Source of the DNA: a virus
Lineage: Duplodnaviria > Heunggongvirae > Uroviricota > Caudoviricetes
Strand: one strand, 5' to 3'
Virus record (IMG/VR): IMGVR_UViG_2541047595_000016
DNA length: 6,579 nucleotides
The notes beneath the pieces are model-generated. The model saw only the letters and a program-made list of their open reading frames with translations. It ran no database searches and was not told where the DNA came from. Numbering within the stretch: position 1 is the first letter of the stretch; the number at the start of each line of letters is the position of its first letter. Both the position numbers and the translations under genes were made by a program. This document shows positions 505 to 6,579 of the stretch, piece after piece.

Positions 505-762
505 TTATCTGGTTTGTTTTCGTAATTGTTCGGCACAATAGTCGAGATGTGTTTGCAGATCCTGCATAGACATCTGTGAGCTGGTGACGTAGTTAATCAG
601 TGCAGTCAGTTCGGCAAGTGGGCCATCGACATTAAATCCATCCTTATCGAGATCCCGGAGTAATTTCATCAAGTGCGATCCCTCCACCAGTGACCTGACG
701 CCTCCCGGCGTGTGAATCCTTTCGGTAAATCCCTCTTCCAGTGGATAGTGATACTGCTGCAT
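505..762 (-). CDS. Small hypothetical protein (85 aa from ATG 762; 90 aa if ATG 777), apparently LexA/SOS-controlled; function unknown, possibly a small antirepressor-type regulator
   Basis: ORF-track ORF 505..777. The second ATG (762-760) has a well-spaced GGAGAAG Shine-Dalgarno; the first ATG (777-775) has none. A near-consensus LexA box lies at 785-800 immediately upstream. Stop TAA at 507-505, then a terminator at 346-368. I do not recognise the protein family by eye. Confidence 0.6.
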   Translation of the reverse strand: MQQYHYPLEEGFTERIHTPGGVRSLVEGSHLMKLLRDLDKDGFNVDGPLAELTALINYVTSSQMSMQDLQTHLDYCAEQLRKQTR

Positions 763-784
763 CTTAATCTTCTCCATGCAATAA

Positions 785-800
785 CTGTATATTTATACAG
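785..800. promoter_or_regulatory. LexA (SOS) box CTGT-N8-ACAG
   Basis: 783-802 = AACTGTATATTTATACAGTA versus the E. coli consensus TACTGTATATATATACAGTA (2 mismatches in 20; CTGT and ACAG intact with 8-bp AT-rich spacer). It contains -10-like hexamers on both strands (TATAAA on minus, TATATT on plus). It lies 7 bp from ATG 777 and 22 bp from ATG 762 of the minus-strand gene. Confidence 0.85.
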
Positions 801-958
801 TAGCAAATAATTTGTTTGCTATCCAGCACGTTTTGCAAATTACCTGAAAGGTAATATCTATTCATATTCACAGTCTTTCTATCCATATATGGTTTTTTGG
901 GTAATAGAATAACCAGATATGCGGCGCAACGGGTGCTGCGACTATCTGGAGATTTAAC

Positions 959-3421
959 ATGACGGTCTCAACCGAAGTTGACCACAACGAATACACAGGT
1001 AACGGCGTTACGACATCATTTCCGTATACCTTCCGTATTTTCAAAAAATCCGACCTGGTTGTTCAGGTGTCTGACCTTAACGGTAACGTTACAAAACTAG
1101 TGCTGGATGCTGGTTATACGGTAACAGGGGCGGGAACTTATAGTGGCGGTGCAGTGGTTCTTCCGTCGCCGCTTGCTGCTGGCTGGCGAATCACGATAGA
1201 GCGTGTGCTTGATGTGGTGCAGGAGACTGATCTTCGCAATCAGGGAAAATTTTTCCCCGAAGTTCATGAGGATGCATTTGACTACCTGACGATGCTGATC
1301 CAGCGATGTTTTGGGTGGTTCAGACGTGCATTGATGAAACCATCTTTGCTTGCAAAATATTACGATGCAAAGCAAAACAGAATATCTAACCTTGCCGATC
1401 CATCACTTGAGCAGGACGCTGTAAATAATCGCTCAATGCGTAATTATGTCGATGCTGCAATCGCCGGAGTTATTGGTGGTTTTGGTTGGTTTATTCAGTA
1501 TGGTTCTGGAGCGGTATACAGAACGTTCCAGGATAAGATGCGTGATGGTGTCAGCATTAAGGATTTTGGAGCTCAAAATGGAATCTTAAATGATAACAAG
1601 GATGCTTTTACAAAATCATTACATTCGTTTAGCAGTGTTTTTGTTCCGGAAGGGGTATTCAATACATCTTTAGTTTCTCTTTCACGTTGTGGCTTGTACG
1701 GAACAGGTGGGGGAACGATAAAACAGTATGACAGAGATGGTAATCATCTGGTTTTTAACATGCCCGATGGTGGCATGCTTAGTACGCTAACAATTATGGG
1801 AAATAAATCAGATGATAGTGTGCAGGGACACCAGGTGTCATTTTCAGGTGGCCATGATGTATCGGTTAAAAATATCAGATTTACAAATACGCGAGGACCA
1901 GGATTTAGCTTGATCGCTTATCCGGATAATGGTATTCCGTCAGGTTACATTGTTAGAGATATAAGAGGAGAGTATTTAGGGTTCGCAAATAATAAAAAAG
2001 CAGGTTGTGTGCTTTTTGATTCATCGCAAAATACGCTAATTGATGGTGTGATAGCCAGAAATTATCCTCAGTTTGGTGCAGTGGAACTTAAAACAGCAGC
2101 AAAATATAACATTGTCAGCAATGTTATTGGTGAAGAGTGTCAGCACGTTGTTTACAATGGAACTGAGACGGAAACTGCCCCAACGAATAATATCATTAGC
2201 AGTGTAATGGCTAACAACCCAAAATACGCCGCAGTAGTTGTTGGCAAGGGGACTGGTAACCTGATTTCGGATGTGCTGGTTGATTACTCTGAATCGGACG
2301 CAAAGCAGGCGCACGGCGTCACCGTTCAGGGAAATAATAATATTGCCAGTAATATTCTAATGACTGGGTGTGATGGGAAAAATGAATCAGGAGATCTGCA
2401 GACATCTACAACCATTCGTTTCTTAGATGCTGCACGCAGTAATTATGCGTCAATATTCCCCATGTATAGTTCTTCCGGCGTGGTTACCTTCGAGGAAGGG
2501 TGTATCAGGAACTTTGTTGAAATTAAACATCCGGGTGACAGAAATAATATTCTGAGTTCTGCATCAGCGGTGACTGGTATTTCCAGTATAGACGGCACTA
2601 CAAATAGCAATGTTGTTCACGTCCCTGCGCTTGGTCAGTACGTTGGGACTATGTCAGGGCGTTTTGAATGGTGGGTTAAATATTTTAACCTTGCTAACCA
2701 GACGCTTGTTTCTGCAGATAAATTCAGAATGCTTGCTGAAGGCGATGTATCTCTGGCTGTGGGAGGCGGTATAAGTTCGCAATTGAAATTATTCAATAGT
2801 GATAATACTAAAGGCACTATGTCGCTAATAAATGGAAATATTCGAATATCTACTGGAAATTCAGAATATATACAGTTTTCTGATTCAGCCATGACACCAT
2901 CGACAACGAATACTTATTCTCTTGGGTTGGCTGGTCGTGCATGGTCGGGGGGATTTACCCAGTCAGCGTTTACGGTGCTGTCCGATGCGCGTTTCAAGAC
3001 TGCTCCAGAGGTTATTGATGAGAAAATACTGGACGCATGGGAAAGAGTGGAATGGGTTTCATACCAGTACCTTGACAGGATCGAAGTGAAAGGTAAAGAC
3101 GGAGCAAGATGGCACTTTGGTGCAGTTGCGCAGCATGTTATCAGTGTATTTCAGAATGAAGGCATAGATGTGTCACGACTGGCATTTATCTGTTATGACA
3201 AGTGGAATGAGACCCCGGCAGAATACAGGGATGTGACGGAAGAAGAGCATTCTGCAGGAGTTTACCCACTTATACAGACAAAGGTTCTGGTACGCGAAGC
3301 CGTCGAGGCTGGTGAATGTTACGGTATCCGTTATGAAGAGGCTCTGATTCTGGAATCTGCGATGATGAGACGCAGGGTTAAAAAGCTGGAAGAGCAAGTT
3401 TTGCAATTAACAGGGAATTGA
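959..3421 (+). CDS. Phage tailspike/tail-fibre receptor-binding protein (820 aa): N-terminal virion-anchor domain, central right-handed beta-helix (probable polysaccharide depolymerase), C-terminal intramolecular chaperone/peptidase S74-type self-cleaving domain
   Basis: ATG 959 with GGAGA at 948-952 and a 6-nt spacer. Residues 1-120 (YTGNGVTTSFPYTFRIF...LVLDAGYTVT...) resemble the N-terminal anchor domain of T7 gp17-like fibres. Residues about 290-640 are Asn/Gly/Ser/Thr/Val-rich with asparagine-ladder runs typical of beta-helix tailspikes (NNIISSVMANN, QGNNNIASNILMTGCDG). Residues 675-680 SDARFK fit the S-D-x-R-x-K autoproteolysis motif (Ser nucleophile, Lys at +5) of endosialidase-type C-terminal chaperone domains. 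Stop TGA 3419-3421. Confidence 0.9.
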   Translation: MTVSTEVDHNEYTGNGVTTSFPYTFRIFKKSDLVVQVSDLNGNVTKLVLDAGYTVTGAGTYSGGAVVLPSPLAAGWRITIERVLDVVQETDLRNQGKFFPEVHEDAFDYLTMLIQRCFGWFRRALMKPSLLAKYYDAKQNRISNLADPSLEQDAVNNRSMRNYVDAAIAGVIGGFGWFIQYGSGAVYRTFQDKMRDGVSIKDFGAQNGILNDNKDAFTKSLHSFSSVFVPEGVFNTSLVSLSRCGLYGTGGGTIKQYDRDGNHLVFNMPDGGMLSTLTIMGNKSDDSVQGHQVSFSGGHDVSVKNIRFTNTRGPGFSLIAYPDNGIPSGYIVRDIRGEYLGFANNKKAGCVLFDSSQNTLIDGVIARNYPQFGAVELKTAAKYNIVSNVIGEECQHVVYNGTETETAPTNNIISSVMANNPKYAAVVVGKGTGNLISDVLVDYSESDAKQAHGVTVQGNNNIASNILMTGCDGKNESGDLQTSTTIRFLDAARSNYASIFPMYSSSGVVTFEEGCIRNFVEIKHPGDRNNILSSASAVTGISSIDGTTNSNVVHVPALGQYVGTMSGRFEWWVKYFNLANQTLVSADKFRMLAEGDVSLAVGGGISSQLKLFNSDNTKGTMSLINGNIRISTGNSEYIQFSDSAMTPSTTNTYSLGLAGRAWSGGFTQSAFTVLSDARFKTAPEVIDEKILDAWERVEWVSYQYLDRIEVKGKDGARWHFGAVAQHVISVFQNEGIDVSRLAFICYDKWNETPAEYRDVTEEEHSAGVYPLIQTKVLVREAVEAGECYGIRYEEALILESAMMRRRVKKLEEQVLQLTGN

Positions 3422-3493
3422 ACCGTAAATGGTGTGTTGTTGCGCGGTATACTTTTCCTGAAGCAGGGTGTTTGCAAATAAACGGGTTTCGTT

Positions 3494-3898
3494 ATGTCAT
3501 TCCAACTAACCAATGAAACTTCAAATCAGTGGCTTAGTGTTAGTTCTCTTGCTGCGGTTATTGCAGGTGTCCCTCCGGAGGTTGCTTTGGGGGCTTTGGC
3601 TGGGGCGGTAATTTTTGTTACCTCTGCGGTAGAGTATCCTATTCGTCGTCGTGTACTCTTGTCGATGCTTAGCTTTCTCTGCGGCCTTCTTTTTTATAAA
3701 CCAGCAGCATCAATTCTTATCGGCATAGCCAGCCTGATCCCTACCATCACGCAGGACTCTTTTGAAAAAGGGATTGTTTTCTCAGCTGGCGCATTCGTGT
3801 CAGCAATTGTTGCTGTGCGTATTGGTATATGGCTCTATCACCGTTCCGATAATCCACGCGAGTTAATTCCGGGGAGAAAAGACGATGGTAACGCATGA
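3494..3898 (+). CDS. Small multi-pass membrane protein (134 aa), first gene of the lysis cassette; holin or antiholin candidate
   Basis: Three to four hydrophobic segments (about 30-46, 54-68, 70-85, 93-115) and a charged C-terminal tail ([19 protein letters not shown]). Its stop overlaps the next gene's start (ATGGTAACGCATGA). Weak Shine-Dalgarno at ATG 3494; an internal TTG at 3587 has a better GGAGG site. Function is from context only. Confidence 0.55.
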   Translation: MSFQLTNETSNQWLSVSSLAAVIAGVPPEVALGALAGAVIFVTSAVEYPIRRRVLLSMLSFLCGLLFYKPAASILIGIASLIPTITQDSFEKGIVFSAGAFVSAIVAVRIGIWLYHRSDNPRELIPGRKDDGNA

Positions 3899-4193
3899 GT
3901 TTTTTTTGCTTATCACCAATGCAGTTATTTGTACTGGCATAGCAATTCGCGTTGTCACATTCCGGCGTAACGGATCTCAACATCGAAGATTGGGAGGGTG
4001 GCTTGCTTATTTCCTTATTGTTGCTGCGGCAAGTATTCCTGTTCGTGTCGTCTATGCAATCTGGTTACGCACGCCAATGGCTGTGGATTTATCTGAGGTC
4101 ATTATCAACGCTGTCATGCTGGCTGCGGTTATTAAAACGCGCGGTAACGTCGTTCAAATTTTTAAAGTATCGAGGTCTAAACATGGAGATTAA
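3885..4193 (+). CDS. Small three-TM membrane protein (102 aa), putative holin
   Basis: ATG 3885 preceded by GGGGAGA with a 7-nt spacer. Three hydrophobic helices (about 6-24, 36-61, 67-83) and a basic C-terminus ([19 protein letters not shown]). Its 3' end overlaps the endolysin start by 11 nt, implying translational coupling. Confidence 0.6.
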
Positions 4194-4812
4194 ACAATTC
4201 CAGCGAGCTGCTGGTATCAGCGAGGCACTGGCCGCACGCTGGATCTCGCATATAACTTCTGCGATGAAAGAGTTTGGTATCAGCAAACCCGAAGATCAGG
4301 CAATGTTTATTGCTCAGGTCGGGCATGAGTCTGGTGGCTTCAACCGGTTGCAGGAAAATTTCAACTACAGCGTCACCGGACTGGCTAACTTCGTTCGGGC
4401 TGGGCGTCTCACTCAGGGGCAGGCTAATGCACTGGGGCGCCGTGCTGGTGAACCACCATTGCCACTTGAGCGCCAGCGCGCGATCGCAAATCTGGTATAC
4501 AGCAAACGCATGGGGAACAATGCCCCTGGTGATGGCTGGAATTACCGAGGGCGCGGACTTATCCAGATTACCGGTTTGAATAACTATCGTGATTGCGGAA
4601 ACGGTCTGAAGGTTGACCTGCTGGAGAGCCCTGAACTGCTGGCGCAGGACGAATATGCGGCTCGTAGCGCGGCGTGGTTCTTCGCCAGCAAAGGATGCAT
4701 GAAGTATACCGGCGATATTGCACGTGTAACTCTGATTATCAATGGTGGCCGGAACGGCATCGACGACCGGCGAGCGCGGTACATCACTGCCAGTAAGGTG
4801 CTGGCGGTATGA
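4183..4812 (+). CDS. Endolysin, glycoside hydrolase family 19 (chitinase-class-I-like lysozyme), 209 aa
   Basis: ATG 4183 with GAGG at 4172-4175. GH19 motifs VGHESGGF and [15 protein letters not shown]. The two putative catalytic Glu fall at residues 49 and 58 by my count, which matches my memory of the numbering reported for the Salmonella phage SPN1S GH19 endolysin. N-terminus is not hydrophobic, so no SAR signal. The ORF-track start at 3952 is a TTG extension through the upstream gene and is not used. Confidence 0.9.
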
Positions 4813-5291
4813 TCTGGGCATTCGTAAAAGCATACTGGAAACAGTTGCTTATCGTGGCAGTGCTTGCTGTTCTGGTCATATCAGGAGTGGTTGCCTGGAA
4901 TATACACGGCAGTCGCCAGTACGATGCCGGGTATGCGCAGGCGGAAGAAGACCGCAAAGCCGAAGAAGACAAAGTTCGTCAGTACTACGAACAGGAGAAA
5001 GTGGCCAATGAACGTGAAGCTCAGCAGAGGATCGACCAGGCGCGCAATGATGCTCTTGATGCTGCCGCTCGCGCTGGCCGGTTGCAGCAACAACTCTTTG
5101 CCATCCGTGAGCAGCTCAGGCAGTATAACGCCATTGTCGGCGCTGGGACGTCAGCCGCAGACACCGGAGTTTTGCTTGCCGACGTGCTCAGCAAATCTCT
5201 CGAGAGAAACAGACAACTGGCAGAGTATGCTGACCGGGCAGCCGAAGCCGGAAGAGTCTGCGAAAAACAGTACGACACACTGACCAGATAG
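4809..5291 (+). CDS. Rz-type i-spanin (inner-membrane spanin subunit), 160 aa
   Basis: ATG overlaps the endolysin stop (ATGA at 4809-4812). N-terminal TM helix ([18 protein letters not shown]) followed by a long charged, Ala/Gln/Glu/Arg-rich predicted coiled-coil periplasmic domain with a single C-terminal Cys. Position right after the endolysin. Confidence 0.85.
5047..5283 (+). CDS. Rz1-type o-spanin (outer-membrane lipoprotein), 78 aa, wholly embedded in the +1 frame of the i-spanin gene
   Basis: ATGATG at 5047-5052 opens [13 protein letters not shown] with lipobox LAGC and Ser at +2 (outer-membrane sorting). The mature part is Pro/Ser-rich and short with Cys residues, typical of o-spanins. 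The ORF-track ORF 4864..5283 is the same frame over-extended upstream. Confidence 0.8.
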   Translation: MMLLMLPLALAGCSNNSLPSVSSSGSITPLSALGRQPQTPEFCLPTCSANLSRETDNWQSMLTGQPKPEESAKNSTTH

Positions 5292-5416: not shown

Positions 5417-5440
5417 TTTGACCCTGCACTATGAATGAAC

Positions 5441-5470
5441 AAAACCCTCTGTTACTACAGAGGGTTTTTT
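5441..5470. terminator. Bidirectional Rho-independent terminator between the convergent lysis operon/guaA remnant and the minus-strand host genes
   Basis: AAAA-ACCCTCTGT-tact-ACAGAGGGT-TTTTTT: stem 5443-5452 pairs with 5457-5466 (GC-rich core of 7 bp), 4-nt loop, T-tract 5465-5470 on plus strand; a weaker T-rich run follows on the minus strand. Confidence 0.75.
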
Positions 5471-5508: not shown

Positions 5509-6048
5509 TTAATTAAACCAGCTGTCCGATTTGTTCTCTTCTGCTTTGCCCACGCTTTTCATCAGATCGCGACCGCCTTCAGTCATATTTCTGTTGGCGT
5601 CAGCTTCAGATTGCACCACATCGGTTTGCGCAGCTTTGTGCTTCAGTTCCTGATCGATAAATTCGTTTTCTCGCTTAACGCGGGCTTCTTCTTTCGCCAG
5701 CGCCAGTTTTTGTTTCTGAATCTCTAAGCTGCGTAGCTCATCTTCATAACTTTGATCGCGTTTTTTGTCCGCAGAGGCTTCGGCGTCCAGTTTATCCTGA
5801 CGAGCTTTCTTATTTGCCGCTGCCGTTGCCGCTCTTTTGTTAGCGGCGGCCTGGGCATTTGCGCGACGTTGCTTCTCTTGCTGGATTTCCCTGTTGCGCT
5901 CCGCGACCCATTCGTCATGCTGCCTTTGCTCTTCATTTTTACCTTGCTGTTCCGCTTCTGCGACAGCAGAGAGTTGATCCTGCAATGATGAGGCGATAGC
6001 CGGATAGCTTAAGGAGGCTAAGATGGCGCAAAGAAAAACTTTCTTCAT
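5509..6048 (-). CDS. yfgI: Secreted (Sec signal peptide) Lys/Arg/Glu/Gln-rich coiled-coil periplasmic protein, 179 aa; host gene, tentatively YfgI
   Basis: ATG 6048-6046 with AGGAGGAG Shine-Dalgarno. Signal peptide MKKVFLCAILASLSYPAIA then an A-x-A cleavage site. The mature protein is highly charged and low-complexity (QRRANAQAAANKRAATAAANKKARQDK...). The name rests on my memory that E. coli yfgI encodes a 179-aa protein and lies beside guaA with yfgH; the sequence itself was not verified. Confidence 0.55.
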   Translation of the reverse strand: MKKVFLCAILASLSYPAIASSLQDQLSAVAEAEQQGKNEEQRQHDEWVAERNREIQQEKQRRANAQAAANKRAATAAANKKARQDKLDAEASADKKRDQSYEDELRSLEIQKQKLALAKEEARVKRENEFIDQELKHKAAQTDVVQSEADANRNMTEGGRDLMKSVGKAEENKSDSWFN

Positions 6049-6063
6049 GACTCCTCCTGATTA

Positions 6064-6579
6064 TTAGCTCTTTTCAGGACATTTGGTATTTGGCTGAATA
6101 CGCGTTTCGTTATACGTCGTGGTAATAACAACGGCTAAACCTGTCGTAAACTGGCACTCTTTACCCACCTGGGTAGAGGTATACACTTTGGTGCCTTCCT
6201 TATAGGTTAAAGAAACACCTTCCACTAAGGTTTTATCATTCACCATAGAACCCGCTGCCGCGCCTACAGCTCCGCCGCCAACTGCACCTGCCGTCGTTCC
6301 GGAATTGCTGCCAGACCCGACGTTGTGGCCGATAACACCGCCAGCGACTGCGCCAATAAGCGCGCCGAAGGCTTGTGCGTTCCGTTTATTTTGGGAGTTG
6401 TCTACGGCAACTTTTGCGGGAAGAATGGAAATAATATTAACGGTTTTAGTTTCTTGTTTGGTATTCAGTTGATCGGTTTGATAAACATCGGCAGCATGAT
6501 CGTCAGCATTTGACTGGCATCCTGCCAGAGTGAATGACGCTAACATTGCCACAGGCAGAAGACATTTTTTAAATTTCAT
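6064..6579 (-). CDS. yfgH: Glycine-zipper outer-membrane lipoprotein (SlyB/Pcp-like), 171 aa as read; host gene, tentatively YfgH
   Basis: ATG at 6579-6577, exactly at the window edge (RBS not visible; the true start could be one or more codons further upstream). Signal peptide with lipobox LAGC and Gln at +2. Gly/Ala-rich glycine-zipper segment (FGALIGAVAGGVIGHNVGSG...AGAVGGGAVGAAAGS). Lies 15 bp upstream of the 5509-6048 gene, so probably an operon. The name is from memory of the K-12 yfgH-yfgI-guaA neighbourhood; unverified. Confidence 0.5.
   Translation of the reverse strand: MKFKKCLLPVAMLASFTLAGCQSNADDHAADVYQTDQLNTKQETKTVNIISILPAKVAVDNSQNKRNAQAFGALIGAVAGGVIGHNVGSGSNSGTTAGAVGGGAVGAAAGSMVNDKTLVEGVSLTYKEGTKVYTSTQVGKECQFTTGLAVVITTTYNETRIQPNTKCPEKS

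Follow-up and report, generated by a model that had tools for sequence, protein, structure and literature searches.

A prophage tailspike gene encoding the K5 lyase ElmA, with an epsilon15-type anchor and a C-terminal S74 chaperone

Results

The spike gene at the locus encodes ElmA

The window, by which we mean the whole 6,579-nt stretch of DNA analysed here (IMG/VR virus record IMGVR_UViG_2541047595_000016, Caudoviricetes), holds an 820-residue open reading frame that begins with ATG and occupies positions 959 to 3421 of the + strand. An ORF call on the window returned these coordinates, as an earlier note made from the letters of this DNA had given them. That note had also divided the product into three modules (anchor, beta-helix depolymerase and self-cleaving chaperone), an architecture that we retain with refinements to each module. 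The features of the locus are as follows.

948..952, + strand: Shine-Dalgarno sequence GGAGA, 6 nt 5' of the ATG, read from the sequence
959..3421, + strand: elmA, tailspike / K5 heparosan lyase gene, 820 codons plus stop (ORF, exact match to P77039)
959..1540, + strand: N-terminal virion anchor of the epsilon15 gp20 type, aa 1-194, with a conserved core at aa 1-~165 (homologues, AF2/Foldseek)
1541..2980, + strand: receptor-destroying body, aa 195-674, a right-handed beta-helix lyase and intertwined stalk predicted to be kept in the mature protein (alignments to 2x3h and 9vvr)
2084-2086, 2090-2092, 2144-2146 and 2153-2155, + strand: proposed active-site residues E376, K378, H396 and Y399 (KflA alignment)
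2936..2938, + strand: R660, stalk arginine that may act as the folding sensor (unchanged in all five K5 lyases)
2981..3418, + strand: Peptidase_S74 (intramolecular chaperone) domain, aa 675-820, including the proposed nucleophile S675 (2981-2983) and K680 (2996-2998) (PF13884, sequence matches to solved chaperones)

An exact-sequence look-up matched all 820 residues of the translation to UniProt P77039, "Eliminase" (ElmA). ElmA was reportedly cloned by Legoux et al. in 1996 and is said to be the N-acetyl-heparosan lyase of E. coli K5. There is no difference from P77039 at the protein level, and the flanking prophage DNA is a few percent divergent from that of sequenced lysogens. Several complete E. 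coli chromosomes carry elmA with 100% DNA identity, labelled there as a tail fiber domain protein, and 68 of the 5426 complete E. coli genomes have it at a coverage of at least 80%, in every case on the chromosome. According to a review (PMC3594737), the lyase that a prophage encodes in E. coli K5 is ElmA, and the K5 lyase is described as acting by beta-elimination, its gene entering K5 genomes through phage integration (PMC5412866). The enzyme has also been employed as a heparosan lyase for chain shortening in strains engineered for heparin biomanufacturing (PMC12834895; PMC9595387). By its sequence the protein belongs to the ElmA/KflA family of K5 (heparosan) lyase tailspikes; an NCBIfam search with the whole protein and with the anchor alone assigned no family. 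We conclude that the spike gene is already known, its enzyme having been named and cloned, understood in structure and put to industrial use, and because the protein matches characterised ElmA residue for residue, we regard the gene as an ordinary one. The earlier note did not spot this match.

A Uetakevirus-like prophage carries the gene at its right end

The surroundings of the gene are those of a temperate podovirus. In the annotated prophage of strain MLI109, the spike gene follows genes for the portal, the capsid, a core protein of the T7 gp14 family and large ejection proteins, and on its 3' side lie two holin-family genes, a GH19 endolysin gene, a DUF2514 Rz-like spanin gene and then the host genes yfgI, yfgH and yfgG. 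Pfam assignments within the window are in keeping with this gene order. Phages phiV10, TL-2011b, HEMP4 and ZX5 share the backbone, as does, more distantly, epsilon15, and the spike occupies the locus that it has in Uetakevirus phages, after a gp19-like gene and before a cassette of two holins, GH19 endolysin and Rz/Rz1. Between the spike gene and the holin genes, epsilon15 and phiV10 also carry genes for O-antigen modification, which the window lacks. Similarity to free phages ends at ~nt 5418, consistent with a junction there between prophage and host sequence. The prophage, of the phiV10/epsilon15 (Uetakevirus) kind, has the gene at its right end, adjoining host yfgI and yfgH. A promoter and terminator scan stayed at background (8 promoter-like sites found, 8.6 expected), and we claim no transcription signals for the spike gene.

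The anchor is of the epsilon15 type within a broad gp17-like fold

The N-terminal module is 70% identical to aa 1-161 of epsilon15 gp20, 68% to phiV10 gp25, 65% to TL-2011b gp48 and, up to aa 232, 86% to the tailspike of EC.W1-9. In epsilon15 and phiV10, whose spike genes occupy the equivalent locus, the 68-70% identity is confined to this anchor, and past aa ~165 their receptor-binding bodies are unrelated to that of ElmA. A search of PDB sequences matched the anchor to the solved N-terminus of the Dpo31/Dpo36 fibre (E 6e-30). Relatives of the anchor domain in the databases carry varied downstream domains, including PF12708, PF12218, PF27114 and PF18668.

The module had been described as a T7-gp17-like anchor, a description that holds for the fold and fails for the family. 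The Pfam family Phage_T7_tail (PF03906) scored below its gathering threshold (18.2 bits against 25.2, E 0.0021) and over aa 135-161 only, and a profile built from 23 anchor sequences, searched against PDB sequences, reached the podovirus fibres Dpo31/36, PhiM1 gp47 and P-SCSP1u gp28 but not T7 gp17. We also searched with an AF2 model of the anchor, which has a pLDDT of ~90 for aa 10-80 and is confident only over aa ~10-125. Foldseek placed the Carin-1 fibre at the top with 46% identity, followed by the fibres of LME-1, PhiM1, Kp9 and Kp7, and it also matched the T7 gp17 N-termini in 7ey9, 7boz and 9jz0 (probability 1.0, E 2.5e-4 to 9e-3) at only 14-18% identity. The best local superposition was that of 9jz0_b, with an rmsd of 2.1 Å over 82 columns. 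Because the match to gp17 is found by fold and not at the level of the family, we regard the anchor as an epsilon15-type member of a broad gp17-like fold. By analogy with epsilon15 and phiV10, this domain probably docks the spike on the tail.

The central body matches the crystallized K5 lyase KflA

Residues 199-675 of ElmA align end to end with the crystal structure of KflA from coliphage K5A (2x3h, E 2e-184), and an alignment to the E1004 phage tail spike (9vvr) spans residues 192-814 (E 6e-225). Against full-length KflA, ElmA is 57% identical over 617 aa (residues 201-817). Pfam Beta_helix, at aa 278-437, remained below its threshold (19.1 bits against 25.9), so that the assignment of a single-stranded, right-handed beta-helix body comes from the alignment to 2x3h and not from Pfam. 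The depolymerase beta-helix predicted for this region is thereby borne out.

ElmA residues E376, K378, H396 and Y399 align with KflA E206, K208, H226 and Y229. All four are invariant, among many other invariant columns, in five K5 lyases that come from four phage lineages and have four kinds of anchor. Thompson et al. reportedly proposed KflA E206, K208 and Y229 as a syn-elimination site in 2010, and the corresponding ElmA residues E376, K378 and Y399 are our candidates for catalysis. Together with the activity reported in the literature for ElmA, the sequence identifies the body as a lyase that would cleave the K5 capsule (heparosan) by beta-elimination. As for the target, which the earlier note had left as O antigen or capsule, the capsule stands and the O antigen falls away. 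The search for catalytic acid residues proposed alongside it does not suit this enzyme, a beta-eliminating polysaccharide lyase and not a hydrolase.

Comparison with other K5 lyases separates what belongs to the enzyme from what belongs to the phage. KflA and K1-5 gp46 share with ElmA the beta-helix, the stalk and the S74 chaperone, and the E/K/H/Y site, the stalk arginine and the Ser-Lys dyad are invariant among them. In place of an anchor domain, KflA and gp46 have a short N-terminal MAKLTKP sequence that binds a separate adapter protein (PMC6872550), whereas ElmA has an epsilon15-type anchor of ~194 aa. The chaperone of ElmA also has 17 residues more than that of KflA, distributed over three gaps at aa ~751-783. 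The E1004 spike (9vvr_A, 843 aa) combines a K5-lyase body and a chaperone as ElmA does; a literature search on phage E1004 (PDB 9vvr) returned no relevant paper. A spike from a Kayfunavirus (L008, vB_EcoP-101120B1-2), exactly as long as 9vvr_A, is 49% identical to ElmA. The N-terminus of the Kayfunavirus spike differs from that of ElmA and, by eye, resembles T7 gp17.

The C-terminus is an S74 chaperone with a conserved Ser-Lys dyad

SDARFK occurs in the translation at residues 675-680, and S675 opens a C-terminal stretch of 146 residues, just as first described. Pfam Peptidase_S74 (PF13884) matches aa 675-735 with an E-value of 1.4e-13, and its score of 51.3 bits against a gathering cut-off of 22 puts the match far beyond chance. 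The region also matches the chaperones of K1F endosialidase (endoNF; 3gw6, E 1e-20), phi29 gp12 (3gud, E 2e-20) and T5 pb1 (4uw8, E 2e-6), which are homologous to that of ElmA and are attached to different chaperoned domains. In a HMMER alignment, the Ser-x4-Lys dyad at the start of the domain lies opposite that of endoNF, with S675 facing S911 (Ala in the mutant structure) and K680 facing K916. Both residues are invariant in the five K5 lyases, and the deposited mature KflA chain (2x3h) terminates at the serine equivalent to S675. Furthermore, "K5 lyases (e.g., ElmA)" are listed among four phage families with this chaperone domain (PMC8326128). The earlier claim of a C-terminal S74 chaperone is thus supported by Pfam, by the sequence matches to three solved chaperones and by the aligned dyad, and its cleavage is a prediction by homology.

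In the mechanism described for T5 and K1F, a lysine-activated serine attacks the preceding peptide bond once an arginine in the stalk of a neighbouring subunit has been positioned (PMC4690869). R660, invariant in the five K5 lyases, may be this folding sensor in ElmA, comparable to endoNF R897 and T5 R1250, and in the HMMER alignment it falls one column off R897, lying 15 residues before the serine where R897 lies 14. From the sequence we calculate 89.7 kDa for the precursor, of which aa 1-674 account for 72.8 kDa and aa 675-820 for 16.9 kDa. In K1F and T5 the cleavage serine leaves with the chaperone, and in phi29 and the 2x3h deposit it remains on the mature spike. Since either may hold for ElmA, the released piece would be 146 or 145 residues long. 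Analogy with these proteins suggests that ElmA cleaves itself.

The receptor-destroying module has been exchanged

DNA comparisons with sister phages locate the boundaries of the module. With EC.W1-9, similarity is lost after nt 1540 (aa 194) and recovered from 3494, similarity to phiV10 extends up to nt 1378 and resumes from 3506, and similarity to TL-2011b extends up to nt 1304 and again resumes from 3506. These breakpoints define a swapped receptor cassette at nt ~1541-3493, and they give good support to the horizontal module exchange that had been suspected on grounds of base composition. The composition itself, once computed, is less clear-cut. The GC content is 43.5% for the whole spike gene, 46.4% for the anchor and 42.6% for the swapped cassette (nt 1541-3421), compared with 46.9% and 43.7% for the holin genes, 55.1% for the endolysin gene, 54.5% for the spanin gene and 51.4% for the whole lysis cassette. 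The rise to 55% starts only in the endolysin gene. By these values, the spike gene is AT-richer than the endolysin and spanin genes, as the impression by eye had it for the lysis genes in general, but not than the two adjacent holin genes. Ahead of the spike cassette, at nt 778-958, lies an intergenic region of its own that is divergent and AT-rich.

A sequence comparison of the five K5 lyases places the same lyase and chaperone behind four attachment devices: the Uetakevirus anchor, a Kagunavirus siphovirus spike, a Kayfunavirus spike and the MAKLTKP heptapeptide of K5A and K1-5. The locus is a clean example of one receptor-destroying module used on all four.

Discussion

A model for ElmA on the virion

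We are highly confident that the open reading frame is elmA and encodes the K5-lyase tailspike of a phiV10/epsilon15-like temperate podovirus of the Uetakevirus type, integrated by yfgI-yfgH in E. coli. We computed the match to ElmA, the boundaries of the modules and the conservation of key residues; the lyase activity is taken from the literature, and self-cleavage and docking are proposed by homology. In this model, trimerization would proceed from the C-terminus, with the chaperone (aa 675-820) nucleating the folding of the intertwined stalk. In a correctly formed trimer, the S675/K680 dyad would cut the L674-S675 bond, freeing a fragment of ~16.9 kDa and leaving a mature spike of ~72.8 kDa. 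Attachment of the trimer to the tail would be the task of the N-terminal domain (aa 1-~165), on the pattern of epsilon15 and phiV10. The beta-helix (aa ~199-560) would bind heparosan, the K5 capsule polysaccharide [-4)-GlcA-beta1,4-GlcNAc-alpha1-], and cut it by beta-elimination at a site that includes E376, K378 and Y399, allowing the virion to tunnel through the capsule to the outer membrane. Because the beta-helix would both bind and cleave the K5 capsule, the spike is predicted to set specificity for K5 hosts. In K5 lysogens, any expression of elmA would shorten and release the cell's own heparosan.

Alternative readings

The anchor and the position of the gene match those of epsilon15 and phiV10, whose spikes (the gp20 endorhamnosidase and the O157 spike, respectively) act on O antigen, and the earlier note had left this option open. 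An O-antigen-specific hydrolase that sets the O-serotype instead of the K-type is nevertheless barely credible here. Similarity to the spikes of epsilon15, phiV10 and TL-2011b ends at aa ~165-173, the remainder is 57% identical to KflA, and the whole protein is ElmA, for which the literature reports degradation of heparosan to unsaturated products without activity on O-antigen LPS. Furthermore, no glycoside-hydrolase family was detected in the spike protein.

Two other readings concern the benefit to the lysogen. The prophage could be a defective relic in which the enzyme was domesticated, retained because the host gains by trimming or shedding its own K5 capsule. Lyase activity in K5 cultures does shorten and release heparosan (PMC5412866), and between the window and MLI109 nt 600-3400 are 100% identical in backbones whose lysis genes differ by 3-4%. 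However, spontaneous induction explains the activity in cultures equally well, free phages with the same backbone exist (for example phiV10, HEMP4, ZX5 and EC.W1-9), and in the MLI109 prophage, which shares the spike gene at 100% identity, the structural genes from portal to tailspike and an intact lysis cassette are present, with no annotated frameshifts. We therefore consider domestication very improbable. Somewhat less remote, though still unlikely, is the idea that the spike cassette and not the phage is the unit under selection, and that ElmA is expressed from the repressed prophage and remodels or sheds the lysogen's heparosan. The complete conservation of the cassette across backbones, its own AT-rich intergenic region and the lyase activity of K5 cultures point in this direction. 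If it were true, a structural protein would have a role in lysogenic conversion. We prefer the reading of ElmA as the K5-specific tailspike of a temperate phage.

As a discovery the locus carries little weight, given that crystal and cryo-EM structures exist for the ElmA family and that publications already mention its C-terminal chaperone. Its practical use is as a heparosan-specific lyase for sizing heparin precursors, and elmA serves as a marker of K5-tropic temperate phages.

The spike of EC.W1-9 also bears the label "eliminase", which we checked against ElmA. The EC.W1-9 protein resembles ElmA in the anchor (86% identity up to aa 232) but does not share its lyase body. Because only the anchor is common to the two proteins, this annotation was apparently carried over from the N-terminus alone.

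Spike gene and upstream region

The gene for the K5 heparosan lyase ElmA and the region upstream of it (600-3400) are 100% identical to the prophage of E. coli strain MLI109 (L001), whereas the neighboring lysis genes (3600-5000) carry 65 mismatches in ~1.4 kb against the same prophage. Because of this disparity, the sequence comparison points to a spike segment that was recently exchanged between related prophages, or swept. At the left end, nucleotides 89-481 resemble a segment of an antirepressor region, and the MLI109 counterpart (L001 15802-16080) is inverted, 88% identical and located within the prophage ~3 kb farther upstream, close to a pseudogene annotated as an antirepressor. Nucleotides 1-218 had no match in MLI109 at the corresponding locus. 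Upstream of the spike gene lies a small divergent ORF:

505-777, minus strand: small ORF of PHROG 450 (unknown function), corresponding to gp19 of epsilon15 and p24 of phiV10

In the epsilon15 record, repressor and IHF sites are annotated in the intergenic region between gp19 and the spike gene.

ElmA and related spikes

The chaperone domain of ElmA contains 17 residues more than that of KflA, the K5 lyase of coliphage K5A, distributed over three gaps at aa ~751-783 (window ~3209-3307). The remaining three of the five K5 lyases compared are likewise shorter in this stretch. At this site endoNF also has a longer segment. The spike of phage EC.W1-9 (L003 3314-5188) is annotated as an "eliminase", but it has only the N-terminal anchor in common with ElmA, at 86% identity to aa 232, and the ElmA lyase body showed no similarity to it. 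The name was therefore probably passed on from the anchor alone.

Lysis genes

GC content rises sharply over 4183-5291, where the endolysin and spanin genes reach ~55%, compared to 44-47% in the two holin genes directly upstream. The lysis cassette is thus a compositional mosaic in itself. It also includes an embedded gene:

5008-5283, plus strand: Rz1-type lipoprotein gene in the +1 frame within the Rz-like gene (4809-5291), with lipobox LAGC

Both its length and its offset from the Rz end equal those of phiV10 p30a.

Right prophage end and host genes

Similarity to free phages stops at ~nt 5418, a position that fits the right-hand junction of prophage and host (attR). From there to 5508 the DNA is AT-rich (~37% GC) and contains a hairpin, and two host genes follow:

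5441-5468: hairpin with a 12-bp stem, flanked by runs of A and T and located between the prophage and yfgI, a convergent host gene
5509-6048, minus strand: yfgI, host gene (DUF5384)
6064-6579, minus strand: yfgH, host gene (glycine-zipper lipoprotein)

Counterparts of yfgI and yfgH are present in the "phage" record of TL-2011b (L002 8724-9794), in what looks like host DNA taken into a phage record. There the yfgH homologue is named "DNA methyltransferase", a label that PHROG 1277 also gives and that appears to be an annotation error since propagated.
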